From the IMG/VR virus record IMGVR_UViG_3300049141_000098, positions 96,001-160,000 of that record: 64,000 bases of DNA; one strand, written 5' to 3'. Positions 32,417-39,293 of this stretch are shown in pieces. The stretch comes from a virus. Its lineage: Duplodnaviria; Caudoviricetes. Position 1 is the stretch's first letter. Each line of letters opens with the position of its first letter. Position numbers and translations under genes: made by a program. The notes beneath the pieces are model-generated. The model was not told the DNA's origin. It made no database searches and saw nothing but the letters and a program-made list of their open reading frames with translations.

Positions 32417-34177
32417 ATGAATGCACAGCCTGAGACGATGGCCCTGACGGCCTTCCGCAGTGAACTCACCGACGTCATCGGACGGCTCGATGAAACAGGC
32501 CCAGTACGGCTGAAGAACCACGGCAGCGTCGTCGCCGAGATCCGCTCGGCCACCCCAGAGGGCGACCGGCGGTACGCCGCAGGCATCCTGGAGGCGTTCT
32601 TCTACCTCGAAGAGAAGTGCAGTACCGGGCTCACCGGAAATCTGGTCAATGTCGGCGTCGACACGCTGGAGGCGCTGATCGAGCTGGCGAGCCGTCACAA
32701 GGCGCTCATGGAAACCGGCGTCACCTTCGACCCCTATCCGGAGCACACTCTCCCTGAGAGCGGACCCCTGACGGTCGACGAAGCCCTGGCACGCCTCTAC
32801 TTCGGCGACAACTATCCGGACGCCACCGATGATCCGTACGCCTGGTTCGAGACCTGCACCATCCTCCAGGCTGAAGCCGCACACCGGGGTTTGGACGCCG
32901 AGCTGCCCTACCCCAACGCCTACGACGAGGACGAGCCCACCTTCGTCGAGCTGGCTATCTCCTCAGGTCACACCCCGCAGAGTCTGCTTCAGTTCGGGGT
33001 AAACGCCCTCGATCAGGGCGTACCCCTGAAAAGCCTGGCGGACCTCCTCGGCGAGAACGCCGTCCCTGCGGACGTCGTCTCCATGAAGGGCTATGACGAG
33101 TACTGGTTCACCCGGCTGACCGAGGCGGGGTTGCCTCACGGTGAGGCCGTGTCCCTTTACCGGGCCGGACGGAGTGGCGAAGTCGGTGACGCAATCGTTC
33201 TGGCCAGTGCTGGAATCCGCGCAGCCAAGGAGATCGAAGAGCTGCTCGACTCCAAGATCAACCTGTCGCTGGTGACCCGTGCTCACAGTGACGGCCTGAC
33301 CCCCGAGCAGTGGCGCGAGCGAGTCCCGCTGATTCAACATCTCAAGTACGAGAAGAGTGGGAATCTGCCCTTCGGTCTTCTCGTCGAGGCCGTCGAGGAG
33401 AAGGTGTCACTGGTTCGCTGGGACAAGAGCAATCTGCCCATCGAAGGGGAGAACTCGCGACGCTCCTTCCACGCAGACAGCAGTGAACGGCAGAAGATGT
33501 ACCCATGGGTGCACGTCTACCCCGATGGCGTCCTCGACCTCGCCCGTGCTGGTATCTCCCCCTCATTCATCATCGCTTTCGGTAAGCTGATGCGGCACCA
33601 CTTCAGCGACACCAGCTCCTCGGAAGAGTTCATCGCCAGCGCGATCGAAGCTCACGCCAAGGGCCTGACCGCTGACATGGCGAACGCCATGTCCCGCCTG
33701 GAGTCCAAGCAGCCGAAGTTCACTCCGGATCAGCTTGCTTCCGTCCTGAAGGAGGGCCTGTCCAGCACGGGTCAGGCGCATCACCTGGCCGACTGCTACG
33801 CCGACCCGGAGCAGTGGATCAAGGATCTGCGCGCCCGGCGCGAAGGGCAGTTGATGACGGACGCCTTCGTTGCCACGATGGAGCACACCGAGGCCTGGCA
33901 GGTCGTCAAGGATGCGGCCTGGGAGATGAAGGGCCTCATCAAGGCACGGGCGTTTAACGGAGGGGTCTACCTGAAGGAGATCGTCGAGAAGTTCACAGCC
34001 GGTGATCCTCTCAACGACTACGAACTGATGATTCTTCTCAGCCGCGCCGCGCACGCCTTCGGTGATCTCAGCTACCTGCCGAGGAGGTGGCGTGACAAGC
34101 ACGAGGGGCAGGCGGATGCCGTCCGCCAGCTCGCCAAGAGCTTCGACAAGGCCCACCGTCCCGTCGTGGGCAACTGA
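32417..34177 (+). CDS. 586-aa protein with N-terminal Phd/YefM-like domain
   Basis: MALTAFRSELTDVIGRLDETGPVRLKNHGSVVAEI matches the Phd/YefM pattern; rest unassigned. Confidence 0.7.
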   Translation: MNAQPETMALTAFRSELTDVIGRLDETGPVRLKNHGSVVAEIRSATPEGDRRYAAGILEAFFYLEEKCSTGLTGNLVNVGVDTLEALIELASRHKALMETGVTFDPYPEHTLPESGPLTVDEALARLYFGDNYPDATDDPYAWFETCTILQAEAAHRGLDAELPYPNAYDEDEPTFVELAISSGHTPQSLLQFGVNALDQGVPLKSLADLLGENAVPADVVSMKGYDEYWFTRLTEAGLPHGEAVSLYRAGRSGEVGDAIVLASAGIRAAKEIEELLDSKINLSLVTRAHSDGLTPEQWRERVPLIQHLKYEKSGNLPFGLLVEAVEEKVSLVRWDKSNLPIEGENSRRSFHADSSERQKMYPWVHVYPDGVLDLARAGISPSFIIAFGKLMRHHFSDTSSSEEFIASAIEAHAKGLTADMANAMSRLESKQPKFTPDQLASVLKEGLSSTGQAHHLADCYADPEQWIKDLRARREGQLMTDAFVATMEHTEAWQVVKDAAWEMKGLIKARAFNGGVYLKEIVEKFTAGDPLNDYELMILLSRAAHAFGDLSYLPRRWRDKHEGQADAVRQLAKSFDKAHRPVVGN

Positions 34178-34204
34178 GGAACCCTCAAGGAAAGGGGAAG
34201 GACA

Positions 34205-34423
34205 GTGAAGTTCTCGAAGAAGGTCGCCCTCGGGGTTGCTCTGGCGGCCGGTGCCGCGTGGGCTGTGTATCGAGCGAAGGTTCGCGCTGATCAGGCCTGG
34301 TTCCGGACGCCGGAGTGGCAGGCCGGTGAGCGCGAGGCCGACCAGGAGCTGAAGGACGGCAAGGGTGTGATCTTCGACAGTCCGGAGGACATGTTCACGG
34401 TGGTGGATCGTGCCGACATTTGA
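34205..34423 (+). CDS. antitoxin-like protein with hydrophobic N-terminus
   Basis: DQAWFRTPEWQAGEREADQELKDG...FDSPEDM typical of actinobacterial antitoxin C-termini; overlaps the toxin gene. Confidence 0.65.
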   Translation: MKFSKKVALGVALAAGAAWAVYRAKVRADQAWFRTPEWQAGEREADQELKDGKGVIFDSPEDMFTVVDRADI

Positions 34424-34739
34424 GCAGACTCCGCGCTTCCTTAAGGACCTCAAGCGTCTGGATTCGCAGAGTCTGGAACGCTTCAAGCAGGTTGTTCTGG
34501 AGCAGTTCGTGCCGGACGTCGATGCCGGAACCTTCCGCAAGTCGCTGCGAGTGAAGCAGATGCAGGGCACCCCGAAGGGGCAGGTCGTCTACGAGATGAC
34601 GTGGGCCCACGACGGCCGGGCCACCTTCCAGTATGGCGAGGAGATCAAGGACGGCGTTCCGCATGTCATCTGGCGTCGCGTCGGCACCCACAGCGCGCTC
34701 AACATCGTGCCGGGCAGGATGAGCAAGTTCAGCGGTTGA
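34410..34739 (+). CDS. RelE/ParE-like toxin
   Basis: PTFEQTPRFLKDLKRL...LRVKQMQG...YEMTWAHDGRATFQY...VIWRRVGTHS. Confidence 0.8.
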   Translation: MPTFEQTPRFLKDLKRLDSQSLERFKQVVLEQFVPDVDAGTFRKSLRVKQMQGTPKGQVVYEMTWAHDGRATFQYGEEIKDGVPHVIWRRVGTHSALNIVPGRMSKFSG

Positions 34740-34853
34740 TCTGGTGTCCTGCGGAACGTGCGCCGCCGAGCATGAGGACGGGCGACGGTTTCACTGGAAT
34801 TTCATTCCTCAAAACTGCTACAGAACAGCAAAGTTCTGCGCTAGAGTTGAAGA

Positions 34854-34893
34854 GTCAGCCGATGAACCGAGGTTGAGCGGCGAGTCGGCTGAC
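34854..34893 (+). other. leader hairpin upstream of the tRNA array
   Basis: GTCAGCCGA / TCGGCTGAC; TAGAGT -10-like hexamer at 34842-34847. Confidence 0.5.
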
Positions 34894-34895
34894 GT

Positions 34896-34971
34896 AGGGG
34901 TGTAGCTCAGTTGGCCAGAGCGCCGGTCTCCAAAACCGGGTCTGTCGCGAGTTCGAATCTCGCCTCCCCTG
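34896..34971 (+). tRNA. tRNA-Trp (CCA)
   Basis: anticodon arm CCGGT CTCCAAA ACCGG; T-loop TTCGAAT; CCA end not encoded. Confidence 0.9.
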
Positions 34972-35011
34972 CTGATCCCCGGGGTGCCACCCCCGTCTCC
35001 CCGGGGATCGC

Positions 35012-35085
35012 CGGGATGTAGCGCAGCTTGGTAGCGCGTCCGCTTTGGGAGCGGAAGGCCGTGGGTTCAAATCCCGCCATCCCGA
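35012..35085 (+). tRNA. tRNA-Pro (TGG)
   Basis: CGGGATG/CATCCCG acceptor; TCCGC TTTGGGA GCGGA. Confidence 0.92.
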
Positions 35086-35087
35086 CT

Positions 35088-35218
35088 GGCGATCAGTAAG
35101 ATCTGGTTGCTCGGCACCGTGCACGGCCCGCTAGCGCGGCTCATGTCCCGACATACTGGAAAGAGCGACAGCGCGGGGCAAGCCGTGAAGAGTGTGCGAA
35201 CACGGCGCACCTCTCGCC
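35088..35218 (+). ncRNA. candidate multi-branched structured RNA
   Basis: GGCGA/TCGCC closing stem; GTTGCTC/GAGCGAC enclosing three small hairpins; further hairpins at 35172-35187 and 35189-35214. Confidence 0.4.
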
Positions 35219-35232
35219 CACAACTGAACAGC

Positions 35233-35359
35233 TCTTCCGTAGTCCAGCGGCCTAAGACAGTGCGGTCGTGGGGATCGAGACCCCAGAGGTTAAAACCTCG
35301 AACCGCTTCGGCGGAATGGCCCCGACGCACTAACGCGGGTTCAAATCCCGTCGGAAGAG
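35233..35359 (+). ncRNA. tRNA-like RNA with a 61-nt three-hairpin region in place of the anticodon loop
   Basis: TCTTCCG/CGGAAGA acceptor, GTC-CAGCGGCCTAA-GAC D arm, GTGCG/CGCAC anticodon stem, GCGGG-TTCAAAT-CCCGT T arm. Confidence 0.75.
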
Positions 35360-35367
35360 AATCACAT

Positions 35368-35447
35368 GAGGTCAGTGACGGAATTGGTAGACGTTGGTGA
35401 GGGTGCACGCCAAGCCCCTCGTGCGGGTTCGAACCCCGCCTGATCTC
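35368..35447 (+). ncRNA. tRNA-like RNA with a Leu-type D arm and non-canonical anticodon region
   Basis: GAGGTCAG/CTGATCTC, ACG-GAATTGGTAGA-CGT, GCGGG-TTCGAAC-CCCGC; no U33-containing 7-nt loop on a standard 5-bp stem. Confidence 0.7.
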
Positions 35448-35450
35448 CTG

Positions 35451-35508
35451 AACCCCGAGGACTCTGTCCTCTTTCTCAGGGCGTCGTCCAAGGGAGTTCT
35501 CGGGGTTT
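35451..35508 (+). terminator. long hairpin
   Basis: AACCCCGAGGACTC ... GAGTTCTCGGGGTT. Confidence 0.5.
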
Positions 35509-35533
35509 TCACATACAGCGAAAGGGGTGGGGT

Positions 35534-35872
35534 ATGGGTGCAGGTCACAACCTTCTGCACATCACGGTGGACAAAGAGGCAGTGCACGAGCGCTTCCCCG
35601 ATCTCGATGCCCGGATCGCCGACCACATCAAGCAGTGGCGCGACTCGGTCGAGCCGGGCACTACGGTCACCATCAACAAGATGATGAACTGCTCCAGCAC
35701 CTGTGGCTGCTCGGCCGACGGCCAGTCGACCAAGTGCACGGGCGCGGGGCACGGCATGCCAGCCGAGATCGTGTTGGGCTTGGTCTTCCCGCCCGATGGA
35801 GGCCCGTGCTCGATCGAGGGTGTGAAGGGCATCGCAGACACCACGCCGAAGCAGATCCAGCGCACCGCGTAA
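35534..35872 (+). CDS. hypothetical Cys-containing protein
   Basis: SD GAAAGGGG; GC3 bias. Confidence 0.65.
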   Translation: MGAGHNLLHITVDKEAVHERFPDLDARIADHIKQWRDSVEPGTTVTINKMMNCSSTCGCSADGQSTKCTGAGHGMPAEIVLGLVFPPDGGPCSIEGVKGIADTTPKQIQRTA

Positions 35873-35960
35873 CGAACGGGGATGCCCACGTGGTAGCCCT
35901 GTCATGAGAGTGATCCGTCCGCGATTTCGAGGCAGAGGGCATTCGAATCAAGGAGGGATC

Positions 35961-36128
35961 ATGACGGAGAACAAGCTGCGCCGTACGTGTTCGCACTGCG
36001 GAGTGGTCGGTGAAGTGGGCGTCGACATCTTCTGGATTACGGACCCCTACATTGAGGAGATTGAAGGCGAGGTCGTCAAGCAGTGACTTCACGAGCATTG
36101 TGCAGATGAAATCGCTGACGAGATCTAA
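35961..36128 (+). pseudogene. small Zn-finger-like gene interrupted by an in-frame TGA (pseudogene or readthrough)
   Basis: MTENKLRRTCSHCG...DPYIEEIEGEVVKQ*LHEHCADEIADEI; TGA 36084-36086; SD AAGGAGGG. Confidence 0.6.
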
Positions 36129-36170
36129 AACTCTCCACCGGGAAGGCCGCCCCGGAACATTAGCGGCCAT

Positions 36171-36243
36171 ACCCCCGTAGCTCAGCGGATAGAGCAGACG
36201 CCTTCTAAGCGTCGGGTCGCAGGTTCAAATCCTGTCGGGGGTG
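36171..36243 (+). tRNA. tRNA-Arg (TCT)
   Basis: ACCCCCG/CGGGGGT; GACGC CTTCTAA GCGTC. Confidence 0.93.
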
Positions 36244-36396
36244 CGACGGTGCACGGCTCGGACTCATACTCCGCCCCGTGTATGGAGGATCAGGTGGCGG
36301 TGGGAGGTCAGCCACTACCCCAGGATCCCCTGACCCCTGGAGGCGAGTGACCTCTCCCTCCGGGGGTTCCGGTAGAACGGAAGGAGAGGAGGAAGC

Positions 36397-36777
36397 GTGG
36401 GGTGCTCTCACAGGAGTGAGGGTTTGAACTTCACTCACCGCGACGTCCCCGAAGCCGTTGCCTACGCCAAGGGGAAGTACTACACGGACGGCGTGAAGCG
36501 ATTCTTGTACTACTGCGCCAGCTTGGAATGCTACGGCCGGGATGACAATATCCATGTCGGCAGGGGCAAGCTCAGCGGTAAACTGAATCGAAGGTTGAAC
36601 GTCGACTTGGTCAACTTCTACACGCACTGGGAAACGTTCGGCACAGGGGGAAAGAAGAGGGATCTCGTGGGACTCCAGACGCGCAGGCGTCGAGCACGAG
36701 TCCTCAAGCAGCTTCCCTATCTGAGGTGGGAAGATGACGGAGGGCCGTCGAGGATAGGGCCGAAACACAGCCCGTAG
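36397..36777 (+). CDS. hypothetical basic protein
   Basis: SD GGAGGAAG; ORF inside the tRNA array. Confidence 0.55.
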   Translation: MGCSHRSEGLNFTHRDVPEAVAYAKGKYYTDGVKRFLYYCASLECYGRDDNIHVGRGKLSGKLNRRLNVDLVNFYTHWETFGTGGKKRDLVGLQTRRRRARVLKQLPYLRWEDDGGPSRIGPKHSP

Positions 36778-36793
36778 GAAAACTCAATAGCGA

Positions 36794-36866
36794 GCATCCG
36801 TAGCTCAGTTGGTAGAGCGCCTGACTCTTAATCAGGCTGTCGCTGGTTCGAGACCAGCCGGATGCA
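36794..36866 (+). tRNA. tRNA-Lys (CTT)
   Basis: GCATCCG/CGGATGC; CCTGA CTCTTAA TCAGG. Confidence 0.93.
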
Positions 36867-36973
36867 CGGGGTGGTATGCACTGCGGCAGACTTCCCCTGC
36901 AAAAGACAAGATCCGCAATTCCGGTGAGCATCCGGGTTACACCTGCTCAGGGCTGGCATCCCTAACTGCCGTG

Positions 36974-37047
36974 GGGCCTGTAGCTCAGACAGTCAGAGCG
37001 CCGGAGTGAAATCCCGGAGGTCGGTGGTGCGAAACCATCCGGGCCCA
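36974..37047 (+). tRNA. tRNA-Phe (GAA), degenerate / possible pseudo-tRNA
   Basis: GGGCCTG/CGGGCCC; loop GTGAAAT; D-loop lacks GG and T-loop is TGCGAAA. Confidence 0.6.
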
Positions 37048-37050
37048 CAA

Positions 37051-37138
37051 GTCGGACGACGAGCCGCTAACGCTGATCTACTGTGACGGGTGGATCGCAG
37101 GCGAAGGCGGCCCCTGCGGGGAAGCGCCGTCGTCCGGC
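37051..37138 (+). ncRNA. candidate four-way-junction structured RNA
   Basis: 11-bp closing stem GTCGGACGACG/CGTCGTCCGGC with arms AGC/GCT, GATCTAC/GTGGATC, GCAGG/CCTGC. Confidence 0.5.
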
Positions 37139-37159
37139 TGTCAACAATTCCATATTCAA

Positions 37160-37231
37160 TCCCCGGTAGTTCAACTGGCAGAACACCGGCCTCTGGAGTC
37201 GGGAATCCTGGTTCAAATCCAGGCTGGGGAG
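37160..37231 (+). tRNA. tRNA-Gln (CTG)
   Basis: TCCCCGG/CTGGGGA; CCGGC CTCTGGA GTCGG. Confidence 0.92.
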
Positions 37232-37233
37232 CG

Positions 37234-37299
37234 GCCGGTAGCTCAGGTTCGAATCCTGGATCAGACTGCGGTCTGAGTAGTGTAGGGAAGCACGCCAGC
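37234..37299 (+). ncRNA. circularly permuted tRNA-like module 1 (no anticodon loop)
   Basis: GCCGG-TAGC-[TCAGG TTCGAAT CCTGG]-ATCAGAC TGCG GTCTGAG-TA-[GTG TAGGGAAG CAC]-G-CCAGC. Confidence 0.75.
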
Positions 37300-37301
37300 A
37301 A

Positions 37302-37369
37302 ATGGGAGGTCTGGGTTCGAGCCCCAGTCGCGGCTTCGGTCGTGATGGTGTAATTGGCAGCACGCTCAT
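37302..37369 (+). ncRNA. circularly permuted tRNA-like module 2 (no anticodon loop)
   Basis: ATGGG-AGGT-[CTGGG TTCGAGC CCCAG]-TCGCGGC TTCG GTCGTGA-TG-[GTG TAATTGGCAG CAC]-G-CTCAT. Confidence 0.8.
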
Positions 37370-37372
37370 CAA

Positions 37373-37445
37373 TCCTCGATAGCTCAATTGGCAGAGTACG
37401 GCACTGTTAATGCTGGGGTTACTGGTTCGAGTCCAGTTCGGGGAG
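37373..37445 (+). tRNA. tRNA-Asn (GTT)
   Basis: TCCTCGA/TCGGGGA; CGGCA CTGTTAA TGCTG. Confidence 0.92.
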
Positions 37446-37540
37446 CGAGGGAGCCTTCAGGCTCACCAGGGTCAAGCGGGCCCCTGACCGTTCGAGTCGG
37501 CAGAAAAGCCCGCCCAGAACCCTTCGGAAAGGGAACGAGA

Positions 37541-37735
37541 ATGGGTGAAAGGCTTGACCGGATCAAGCGGGTTATCAACCCGCCAGTCACTGCCGAGTGG
37601 ATCGACACGGTGGTAACGCAGCGCAGCGAACAGGCCGACGAGATCGAAGAATCGAAGGGCCCGAAGGCGGCGCAGCGGCATCGCGAGAAGACCGGCAGGA
37701 TGGTAGGGAAGATGTTGCGAAGAGGCGTCATCTGA
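37541..37735 (+). CDS. small hypothetical protein
   Basis: SD GGAAAGGG; 64 aa. Confidence 0.6.
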   Translation: MGERLDRIKRVINPPVTAEWIDTVVTQRSEQADEIEESKGPKAAQRHREKTGRMVGKMLRRGVI

Positions 37736-37742
37736 CCGACCC

Positions 37743-37860
37743 GGGCGGGTGCCAGAGCGGCCTATTGGACCGGACGCAATCCGGTTGATCCGTCTGAGCC
37801 TCGGCGTACGGCAACGAGGCTCGTCAGCGGTGATCGTGGGTTCAAATCCCACCCCGTCCA
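37743..37860 (+). ncRNA. tRNA-like RNA with a 5-nt anticodon loop and 51-nt variable arm
   Basis: GGGCGGG/CCCGTCC, CCA-GAGCGGCCTAT-TGG, CCGGA CGCAA TCCGG, long arm 37785-37835, GTGGG TTCAAAT CCCAC. Confidence 0.75.
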
Positions 37861-37995
37861 CAACGCTTGCGCCCAGGCGGAGCGATACAGCAGAGCAACA
37901 CGTGCTCGCCGTGTACGACTTGACGCATCTAGGGGACCCTCCTCTCCACTCTGCGAGAGGGTGGGGCCGACGGAAGCTGTGAACCTTCGGAAGGG

Positions 37996-38277
37996 ATGAA
38001 GAGGATGGACGCAGGGAGCCTGGACCGGCACATCACCGGGAACTGGGGAGAGGACTCTGTCGCACCGGAGTTCGTCGCAGCGCGAGAGCTGGGCGACTTC
38101 GAGGCGAGCGCCGAGGTCGTCATCGACGCCGCGCCGCAGACCGACGAGAAGTGCATCCCCGTGACGGTGGAGAAGGTGTCGATCACCTCCGGCATGGTGT
38201 ACGTGACGACGAAGGAGCTGGCCTGGCCCCTCGTCATCCCGGAGGATGACACCGTCTGGTTCGCCGACGAGAACTGA
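37996..38277 (+). CDS. hypothetical protein
   Basis: GC3 bias, SD GGAAGGG. Confidence 0.65.
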   Translation: MKRMDAGSLDRHITGNWGEDSVAPEFVAARELGDFEASAEVVIDAAPQTDEKCIPVTVEKVSITSGMVYVTTKELAWPLVIPEDDTVWFADEN

Positions 38278-38284
38278 TTCACCC

Positions 38285-38500
38285 GTGACTCACCTCAGTG
38301 AGGCCCTGGAGCGGCACCTCGCATCGACTCCGCGCCTTGCGGACGACCTGCCCGAACTGGTCGGGTCGCAAGAGCTGGCTGATGCCATGCTGCGCGGTCG
38401 GCATCAGGCGAATTTGTACGAGGCGACCTTGTTGGCGGCGTACTGCAAGACGTCGGTGAAGGATTTCTTCGAGCTGGACAGCACCAAGAAGGGAAACTGA
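38285..38500 (+). CDS. small XRE-like hypothetical protein
   Basis: ...ANLYEATLLAAYCKTSVKDFF resembles an XRE C-terminal helix. Confidence 0.45.
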   Translation: MTHLSEALERHLASTPRLADDLPELVGSQELADAMLRGRHQANLYEATLLAAYCKTSVKDFFELDSTKKGN

Positions 38501-38769
38501 TGGAGCAGGGCCGGATTACCGTCAAGGGATCAATCGAGTTTCGTGATGCGGCGATAGAGCTGTCCAAGAAGGGGAGCGAGGTGTACGCCAGCCTTGCCGG
38601 ATCCGCGAAGACGTACCGAATCCTCACCGGCACGATGAGTCGGGTCACCGTGGAGGATCTCTTCTCAGCAGACCACCCGCCAATCCTGATGGAGGACTTC
38701 GCCACAGCGCTCGTCATCGCGGACAAGAACGGCAAGGACGTGCCGACCATCGACGTCTTCACACCCTGA
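38500..38769 (+). CDS. hypothetical protein
   Basis: TGATG overlap. Confidence 0.6.
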   Translation: MEQGRITVKGSIEFRDAAIELSKKGSEVYASLAGSAKTYRILTGTMSRVTVEDLFSADHPPILMEDFATALVIADKNGKDVPTIDVFTP

Positions 38770-38783
38770 TCGGGGACGGGCCG

Positions 38784-39293
38784 GTGTACATTCCGCCGTC
38801 GTTGCGGCTCAAGGATCCGGCGCTGATCGAGCGATGGGAAAGGCTGGCTGTGTACGCGCGGGCAGTCCCGCCGCGACCCGCCATCATGCGCTACACCAAC
38901 TCGCTGCATCCCGAGTGGGTGCTGACGGGTCACCGCGCCAAGGGCATGGCTTCCGCAATCTTCTTCACCCGGGGCGAGGCTCACGACTTCGACGCCTTCG
39001 ACGAGGTGGAAGCGGGTGGAGAGTTTCACAGCGTGACCACCGAGTACAAGGTCAGCGAGAGAACCCCGTTCGTCATCCGCCGCGTCGATGCCACCCACCT
39101 GCGCGTAACCGAGGATGGCGACGATCTCGAACTGGCGTCAAACCAGAAGCAGGGTCTGGTAGGTCTCCTTCGATCCACACTGGGAGCCCAGAAGGCGGGG
39201 CTGCTCAAGCCTGACGCGCAGGAGCTGGACGAGCTGCTGGCGTTCCTGGAGCACGCCAGTGCAGACGTCGAAGAGGGTGTCCTCGGGCCGTAA
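38784..39293 (+). CDS. hypothetical protein
   Basis: GC3 bias. Confidence 0.65.
   Translation: MYIPPSLRLKDPALIERWERLAVYARAVPPRPAIMRYTNSLHPEWVLTGHRAKGMASAIFFTRGEAHDFDAFDEVEAGGEFHSVTTEYKVSERTPFVIRRVDATHLRVTEDGDDLELASNQKQGLVGLLRSTLGAQKAGLLKPDAQELDELLAFLEHASADVEEGVLGP

Follow-up and report, generated by a model that had tools for sequence, protein, structure and literature searches.

In a soil phage genome, a 118-nt element at positions 37743-37860 of the window (the whole 64,000-nt stretch of DNA that was analysed, bases 96001-160000 of a 259,646-bp virus record) folds as a tRNA in which the acceptor stem has 7 bp, the D arm is of class II and the T arm is normal, and combines this frame with an anticodon-type loop of five nucleotides and a variable arm of 51 nt. 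Judged from the pattern of substitutions among the homologues, this tRNA-shaped element is under selection, and so is its long arm. The most likely interpretation, to which we assign about an even chance of being correct, is that the element is a selected class II tRNA-derived phage RNA acting as a non-decoding mimic that engages a tRNA-binding factor.

The source record (G000) carries direct terminal repeats and has a GC content of ~63%; given its length and these repeats, the virus is a jumbo phage. The runs that contain the window DNA are soil and rhizosphere metagenomes, and a homologue of the 64-aa ORF that adjoins the element, 77% identical to it, is encoded on a 252,977-bp contig from the assembly of Streptomyces sp. 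NPDC058947, which, taken together, makes Streptomyces the likely host of the window phage. This contig (JBHYKT010000008.1 in assembly GCA_042741515.1, from a Streptomyces isolate; hereafter L037) carries a closely related array of tRNAs and ORFs and probably represents a related jumbo phage that resides in, or accompanies, the Streptomyces strain. In the window, the element is the final member of such an array on the plus strand (~34,900-37,860), where eight tRNAs called by ARAGORN are interspersed with small ORFs and several odd tRNA-shaped pieces; the composition of the array is mosaic between related phages. A simple scan of positions 34000-39000 found neither a sigma-70-type promoter-like site nor a plus-strand terminator-like site (other promoter types were outside its scope), the single terminator-like site being on the minus strand at 38745-38730, and this result is compatible with co-transcription of the array.

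Homologues of the element were reached by several routes. In a 251,159-bp relative of the phage (genome G002, locus L003), reached via a dCMP-deaminase-like neighbour gene, the element is found at L003:8627-8746, with 74% identity. Three soil contigs that are nearly identical to one another (L033, L034 and L035) and were reached via the 64-aa ORF also contain the element, and a fourth contig reached in the same way, L036, ends inside it. Contigs from four runs were aligned to the window; two are identical to it and likely represent its source, and two rhizosphere variants, X3 and X5 (two runs), were also obtained. The family thus comprises five sequence variants in two deep lineages, and it is rare: BLAST of the element against 50,697 public phage records gave no match, three pattern scans of viral contigs recovered the 251-kb relative alone, and a protein scan of viral contigs with the 624-aa neighbour as the query gave no match. 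A pattern scan of metagenomes yielded 20 chance matches, of which 18 were left unscored by our covariance model of the element (R1) and two reached 14 bits on the opposite strand. When R1 was run over 151 Actinomycetes genomes (a tally that includes the unpublished genome G038, which enters no other result), it retrieved ordinary class II tRNAs only, 82-93 nt in length and scoring at most 57 bits, none of them long-armed. The variable arm is a single-copy sequence in both phage genomes, and a dispersed repeat or mobile hairpin was rejected for this reason.

The anticodon loop is free of insertions and deletions in all five variants, and the giant arm is present in each of them. Inspection of positions 37775-37779 at the read level had been proposed by the reading made from the sequence alone (hereafter, the sequence-only reading), and neither the contigs of the four runs nor the three homologous loci contain an indel there. 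The contigs do not restore the 7-nt CTGCAAA loop that this reading had named, along with ordinary arms in the homologues, as evidence against its claim, and the homologues have the giant arm as well. Given this agreement between contigs and loci, the 5-nt loop is real, neither an assembly error nor an artefact.

The minimum free energy fold of the element is a four-arm cloverleaf (-57.7 kcal/mol, z = -3.1) that none of 200 shuffled sequences matched in stability. All the features lie on the plus strand. The 5' strand of the acceptor stem, GGGCGGG (37743-37749), pairs with 37853-37859, and the homologues differ in this stem by a compensatory C-G to A-U substitution and by two wobble changes; the 3' strand, CCCGUCC, and the discriminator A at 37860 (together 37853-37860) are followed by no encoded CCA, which is likewise missing from the canonical tRNAs examined alongside the element. 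U8, G9 and the class II D arm occupy 37750-37768, the D arm proper (37752-37768) consisting of a 3-bp stem, CCA/UGG, and an 11-nt loop, GAGCGGCCUAU, with G18 and G19. Nucleotide 26 (37769) faces nucleotide 44 (37785), and the two form A-U in the window, G-U in L033 and C-G in L003, that is, by comparison of these sequences, a covarying pair stacked on the anticodon stem. The equivalent of the anticodon arm (37770-37784) is the stem CCGGA/UCCGG (37770-37774 with 37780-37784), unchanged in all variants, which closes the 5-nt loop at 37775-37779; the loop is CGCAA in the window, L033 and X5, UGCAA in X3 and CGUAA in L003, and never consists of seven nucleotides. The T arm (37836-37852; GUGGG UUCAAAU CCCAC) has a canonical loop and differs among the homologues by a compensatory change of U-A to C-G and an A/G change at position 57.

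The variable arm (37785-37835) is about three times the normal length and is present in every homologue. It is best divided into four parts, namely, from the base outwards, a 6-bp helix carrying a UG bulge, an internal loop, a hairpin of 8 bp and, at the tip, an apical loop of 11 nt. In the base helix, GAUCCG (37787-37792) pairs with 37828-37835 (CGGUGAUC), where the UG is bulged out; the same helix is continuous in L003 (GAUUCG/CGAAUC), with one compensatory change of C-G to U-A. The internal loop consists of UCU (37793-37795) opposite GUCAG (37823-37827), and the hairpin spans 37796-37822, with the stem formed by 37796-37803 and 37815-37822 and the loop at 37804-37814. Within the apical loop there is a self-complementary hexamer, CGUACG (37805-37810), replaced by CCAUGG at the equal offset in L003. 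The sequence-only reading had located the tRNA frame, the class II D arm, the CCGGA/TCCGG stem closing CGCAA and the 51-nt arm exactly where we find them. It had also proposed four nested pairings in the arm, and of this proposal the long paired arm stands but the four pairings taken together do not: GATC and CCG both use C37790, CTGA and GAGCCTCG both use G37796 and A37797, and given these overlapping bases, the four cannot all coexist.

Selection on the structure can be gleaned from the alignment of the three distinct sequences of the window, L033 and L003. Standard pairs account for 97% of the cells in this alignment, and 8 of the 35 pairs are changed on both sides, a combination of pairing and covariation that was reached by none of 500 shuffles and by no slid control. 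Four of the eight double changes fall in the long hairpin; the other four are spread singly over the acceptor stem, T stem, 26:44 pair and base helix of the arm. In the hairpin, two further pairs are changed on one side, and every pair is still paired, so that covariation of homologues in the long arm, put forward as a check by the sequence-only reading, was indeed observed. The window and L003 differ at 9 of the 16 positions of the hairpin stem, at none of the 8 internal-loop positions, in 1 of the 19 columns of the D-arm region and at none of the 10 positions of the CCGGA/UCCGG stem, and the ends of the apical loop (G...RCAA) are also fixed between the two lineages. Because these unpaired bases are fixed while the neighbouring helix drifts, we infer that the arm makes a sequence-specific contact. 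The self-complementarity of the apical hexamer is retained although CGUACG and CCAUGG differ in four of six bases, equivalent to two compensatory double changes; under composition-preserving shuffles, the chance of this is ~0.0013, where the covariation and the palindrome together represent essentially one deep comparison (five variants, two lineages). The central bases of the hexamer are adjacent, and the outer pairs would close a two-base loop, below the hairpin minimum of three; with the hexamer too tight for a hairpin of its own, pairing between two molecules is suggested.

Two other readings of the arm were considered and rejected. The apical loop has a 14-nt match at position 194,978 of G000, a candidate antisense target; the match lies in sense orientation with respect to the local gene and is missing from the relative. 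A K-turn in the internal loop, assessed by inspection only, was rejected, with tandem G-A absent from both strands.

Searches with standard tRNA and RNA-family models do not recover the element as a tRNA. ARAGORN makes no call on it, the Rfam tRNA model (RF00005) gives no match even at E <= 10, and the Rfam search found no match to a tRNA-Sec, YrlA, ribozyme or intron family; the sole Rfam match is that of the tmRNA model (RF00023) to the two ends of the element, at 23 bits versus a gathering score of 47 (E = 1e-6 in a 4-kb search). Inspected feature by feature, the acceptor stem, the D arm with G18 and G19 and the T arm with its UUCRAnY loop are all those of a canonical tRNA, and the class II scaffold is evident in the 3-bp D stem, the long D loop and the helical arm in the variable region. 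The combination of a 5-bp stem and a 7-nt loop with U33 and a purine at position 37 is absent, the loop having five nucleotides in all five variants.

The ancestor of the element can be narrowed down. The best ten R1 matches in the 151 Actinomycetes genomes, typed with ARAGORN, are eight tRNA-Ser(UGA) (53-57 bits) and two tRNA-Tyr(GUA) (51 bits), and in Jiangella muralis tRNA-Ser is top-scoring. Of the tRNAs found, tRNA-Ser alone (GGA, UGA) contains an exact copy of the 17-mer that covers the acceptor end and the D arm, and the other matches of this 17-mer are outside called tRNAs, many in apparent protein-coding sequence. The proposal of a Ser/Tyr-type class II D arm in the sequence-only reading agrees with these matches. 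The D-arm sequence is identical to that of a Gaiellales tRNA-Ser and, compared by eye, shares 17 of 20 positions with an actinomycete tRNA-Tyr. With this tRNA-Tyr the element also has in common the A31-U39 closing pair and A73, and the L003 loop CGUAA equals the Tyr loop CUGUAAA less U33 and one A. The element thus appears to descend from a class II tRNA of the Ser/Tyr type, and we lean towards Tyr ancestry.

The features that define the identity of a tRNA are not fixed in the family. The anticodon-like triplet is GCA in four of the five variants and GUA in L003, so that the Cys-like GCA, highlighted in the sequence-only reading, is not a conserved feature. The first loop base, 5' of the triplet at the position of U33 in a normal tRNA, is C in four variants and U in X3; as discriminator, the window and L003 have A and the other three variants (L033, X3 and X5) have C, G being found in none; and G3:U70 occurs in the window variant only, with G3:C70 in the other four. 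Of the Ser and Tyr identity elements (G73 for Ser; A73, G34 and U35 for Tyr; and a correctly oriented variable arm), A73 is present in two variants and C73 in three, G34 is kept and U35 is seen in L003 only. The suggestion of the sequence-only reading that the RNA might be chargeable, if SerRS still reads the long arm, is accordingly a conjecture, the discriminator being A or C rather than the G of tRNA-Ser. Such variation of the triplet, the first loop base, the discriminator and G3:U70 on one and the same body is hard to reconcile with a fixed decoding identity and makes a fixed amino acid and a fixed codon unlikely.

In the window, L033 and L003, the upstream 64-aa ORF terminates 7 nt before G1 of the element; together with its ribosome-binding site, this ORF constitutes a 225-bp cassette (37518-37742) that is an exact presence/absence difference between variants: X3 and X5 join 37517 to 37743. 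In L037, the ORF is present and the element is absent, its site being occupied by ~150 nt that show no significant similarity to it (z = 1.1) and no stable fold (z = -0.7). The two are therefore separable, X3 and X5 lacking the ORF cassette and L037 lacking the element. Given its absence from L037 next to a matching upstream ORF, the element is, by this comparison, a dispensable, self-contained module. Immediately 3' of the element, the DNA of the window and that of L003 are too different to align; the element itself is preserved between the two about as well as true tRNAs are.

Some additional features of this neighbourhood can be noted. A Gln codon (CAG) of the 64-aa ORF in the window, L033 and L037 corresponds to an in-frame TAG in the ORF of L003 (L003:8425-8619), and the part that follows this TAG differs by five synonymous and four non-synonymous changes, which indicates continued coding constraint. 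A spacer after the tRNA-Asn gene (37447-37517) is kept in three phages (L003:7796-7868, L037:5896-5968) and contains a T-loop-like GTTCGAGTC. In X3 and X5, the CCCGCCC at the end of this spacer lies 2 nt before the GGGCGGG of the element, to which it is complementary.

As a mimic, the element would be transcribed together with the surrounding tRNAs and ORFs and would then be excised, like the neighbouring tRNAs, by RNase P and the 3' tRNA-processing nuclease, with CCA added by host enzymes; these steps are expected from the intact state of the acceptor stem, D arm and T arm, which these enzymes read. With the loop contracted to five bases, a normal anticodon could not be presented, so that decoding would have been lost. 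The irregular arm helix of ~50 nt would provide a specific docking surface for a partner, given that the stems of the arm drift by compensation while UCU/GUCAG and the loop ends G...RCAA are fixed. An RNA of this kind could occupy a tRNA-binding factor without being consumed in translation, the candidate targets being synthetases that recognise a long variable arm and host defence nucleases directed against tRNAs. Pairing of two copies through the self-complementary apical loop might also occur. In the phage genome, no match was found to RtcB, to PF00587 (the class II synthetase core family, which includes SerRS), to the CCA-adding enzyme family, to FemAB or to reverse transcriptase.

The principal alternative, which we consider possible but rather unlikely, is that the element is a working, if unusual, decoder. 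The 26:44 pair and a CCGG/CCGG stem would then enclose a 7-nt loop, A-Y-G-Y-A-A-U, in which A31 and U39 are open and which presents the anticodon GCA for Cys codons or GUA for Tyr codons; the class II body would be charged by TyrRS or SerRS, and the RNA would supply a tRNA that the phage otherwise lacks or bring about deliberate missense incorporation or near-cognate stop read-through. The covariation of 26:44 (A-U, G-U, C-G) fits this arrangement, as does the register, which yields a pyrimidine at position 33 (U in X3) and A37, and the L003 loop retains C32, G34, U35, A36, A37 and the A31-U39 pair of actinomycete tRNA-Tyr. According to ARAGORN, the phage has no Tyr, Cys or Ser tRNA, and L003, the only GUA lineage, is also the one with an in-frame TAG in the adjacent upstream ORF and conservation continuing beyond it. 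However, A31-U39 is invariant and predicted to pair, the stem proper would be one base pair short (4 bp), position 33 is C in four of the five variants, and a single body carries anticodons of both the Cys and the Tyr box, with the discriminator varying too. Furthermore, neither ARAGORN nor the Rfam tRNA model recognises the element, and neither phage shows genome-wide recoding of stop codons: the conserved frames of both contain no genome-wide in-frame TAG, TGA or TAA, and the TAG in the small ORF of L003 is, in the comparison of the two genomes, the only clear mid-frame stop flanked by good conservation. The view of the sequence-only reading that the element is a structural RNA on a tRNA frame rather than a decoder accordingly holds for the structured frame, as borne out by the fold and the covariation, and is no more than likely for the non-decoding part, given that a 7-nt register fits the data.

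The element could also be a cis-acting processing signal, whose cleavage by RNase P and RNase Z would set the neighbouring mRNAs apart and stabilise them, in the manner of tRNA punctuation; this appears unlikely. Such a role would be consistent with the alternation of ORFs and tRNAs on one strand in a region where the scan detected no sigma-70-type promoter-like or plus-strand terminator-like site, with the position of the 64-aa ORF, whose stop codon precedes G1 by 7 nt in three phages, and with the acceptor, D and T arms being the best preserved tRNA features. It fits poorly with the occurrence of the element without the ORF in X3 and X5 and of the ORF without the element in L037, and it leaves unexplained the compensatory changes in the 51-nt arm, its invariant unpaired bases and the covarying palindrome.

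A more specific version of the mimic, and a speculative one that we regard as improbable, is a dimer, in which two copies would kiss via the apical hexamer and hold two tRNA bodies at a fixed distance. If this were the case, the RNA could trap a dimeric SerRS or TyrRS, or a multimeric tRNA-cleaving defence complex, as a bivalent inhibitor.

That the element is a decaying, functionless tRNA pseudogene, with its odd features reflecting damage, is very unlikely. The failure of the tRNA finders to make a call, the mosaic array with its other broken-looking tRNA pieces and the unrelated, unstructured sequence at the L037 site would all be expected of such a relic; yet, at 26% divergence, neutral decay would break many pairs, whereas the pairing extends to 97% of the cells with eight double changes, and the element is kept like true tRNAs next to a 3' flank that has diverged beyond alignment between the window and L003. 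Given that double changes in 8 of the 35 pairs retain the pairing, decay is largely refuted for the lineages of the window, L033 and L003. Finally, a miniature tmRNA-like or alanine-accepting RNA, as hinted by the Rfam match to the ends, the G3:U70 of the window and the ...UCCACAA 3' end, can be practically dismissed, with the score far under the threshold, G3:C70 in the four other variants, only 118 nt that hold no tag frame or pseudoknots, and a full D stem and anticodon-type stem that are absent from tmRNA.

The phage genomes encode other RNAs that resemble tRNAs. A TROVE/Ro60 protein is encoded near 81 kb of G000 (536-aa frame, 53.6 bits), in a region of ~79.5-83.5 kb (L120:4168-4600 and L121), 13-16 kb before the window, where the TROVE gene is accompanied by at least three Y-RNA-like genes; these genes have in common the boxes CGGTTACTTC and TTGGTTAACC, and one of them gives a sub-threshold YrlA match of 32 bits. 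A conserved, circularly permuted tRNA-like module is located at 37300-37372 (L003:7650-7721, L037:5760-5832), with compensatory changes in three pairs; its order is closing stem, T arm, acceptor-type stem with a UUCG/CUCG loop and D arm, which is the layout of the tRNA-like domain in YrlA-type Y RNAs, without the Ro-binding boxes. These Ro60/Y-RNA genes and the permuted module indicate that the phage invests in tRNA mimicry elsewhere, which we count in favour of the element being a mimic.

Several remodelled tRNAs lie closer to the element or in the relatives. At 35233-35359, a tRNA body has ~61 nt in place of the anticodon loop, and BLAST against L033, L037, L003 and L002 found no match to it. 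It is followed at 35369-35447 (L033:2915-2993) by an RNA that ARAGORN reports as 'tRNA-???' with a four-base anticodon (ggtg); this RNA, whose D arm is of a Leu-like class II type and whose terminal stem has 8 bp, is kept in the soil contigs. In the more distant relative L002, a 98-nt RNA after tRNA-Asn (L002:6835-6932) joins a 7-bp acceptor stem and a T arm to an unrelated core and is strongly folded (z = -4.1), and the 87-nt 'tRNA-Gly(ccc)' called by ARAGORN at L003:6787-6873 contains an extra insert in the anticodon region and so is another remodelled tRNA.

The tRNA gene clusters of phages are commonly interpreted as codon supplements or else as a stock of spare parts against defences that cleave tRNAs. 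Here, a tRNA body appears to have been converted under selection, keeping the half that the processing enzymes read, shutting the loop to five bases and acquiring a new domain in the arm. That phage tRNAs counter tRNA-cleaving defences is an established theme (PMC10264068, PMC11464382, PMC11555353), and a mimic would extend this known use. Should a defence nuclease or a synthetase prove to be the partner, the element would be the first RNA decoy of that kind and would reveal the variable arm as a site where new tRNA functions can arise. It is, in addition, a natural example of the arm size compatible with the tRNA fold, of use in tRNA engineering, and, together with the Ro60/Y-RNA genes and the permuted module, it points to unexplored tRNA mimics in phages related to the Streptomyces-associated contig.

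Among the known systems, the element is most directly compared with the bacterial class II tRNAs, tRNA-Tyr and tRNA-Ser of Actinomycetota, with which it shares the 7/5 acceptor/T branch, the 3-bp D stem with an 11-nt loop (GAGCGGCC...), the T loop UUCRAAU and an arm arising from the variable region. Unlike these tRNAs, it has a 5-nt rather than a 7-nt anticodon loop, mostly lacks U33 and is not fixed in its anticodon and discriminator. The variable arms of cellular class II tRNAs are roughly 13-21 nt long, and those matched by R1 measure 82-93 nt in all, compared with an arm of 51 nt and a total of 118 nt in the element. The pseudo-tRNA 'tRNA-Other' of Bacillus cereus is likewise tRNA-shaped and thought to be a regulator rather than a decoder; it is chromosomal and of class I size, with a loop of normal length. 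A tRNA with a group I intron, which would be recognised by an insert in the anticodon loop, a catalytic core of at least 200 nt and a canonical tRNA after removal, was rejected: the extra ~39 nt of the element are in the variable arm rather than the anticodon loop, taking them out does not yield a 7-nt loop, and they match no ribozyme or intron family.

The YrlA (RF02553) Y RNAs bound by Ro60/Rsr resemble the element in mimicking tRNA, the Y RNA being non-decoding. The Y RNAs of this phage, however, carry the boxes CGGUUACUUC and UUGGUUAACC and have their ends in the stem opposite the acceptor, whereas the ends of the element form a normal acceptor stem; with both boxes absent from the element and no YrlA match on it, identity with a Y RNA was rejected. 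Allo-tRNAs and tRNA-Sec-like tRNAs, which occur in soil bacteria and phages, also place a long variable arm and a non-Ser anticodon on a Ser-type body, but they have an 8/4 or 9/3 branch and a 7-nt anticodon loop, compared with the 7/5 branch, 5-nt loop and much longer arm of the element (PMC5389517). Identity with either was rejected on the 7/5 branch (8/4, 9/3 or 8/5 being diagnostic), the 3-bp D stem and the missing UCA (tRNA-Sec having a 6-bp D stem and a UCA anticodon), and no tRNA-Sec match was found on the element. Nucleases of tRNA-cleaving defence systems attack the anticodon loop, and the phage tRNAs that evade them resemble the element in belonging to a phage tRNA cluster and having an altered anticodon loop (PMC10264068, PMC11464382, PMC11555353). 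Those tRNAs are working decoders with point changes or high expression, in contrast to the element, which has lost two loop bases and gained a large arm and, for this reason, would act as a putative decoy rather than as a spare part.
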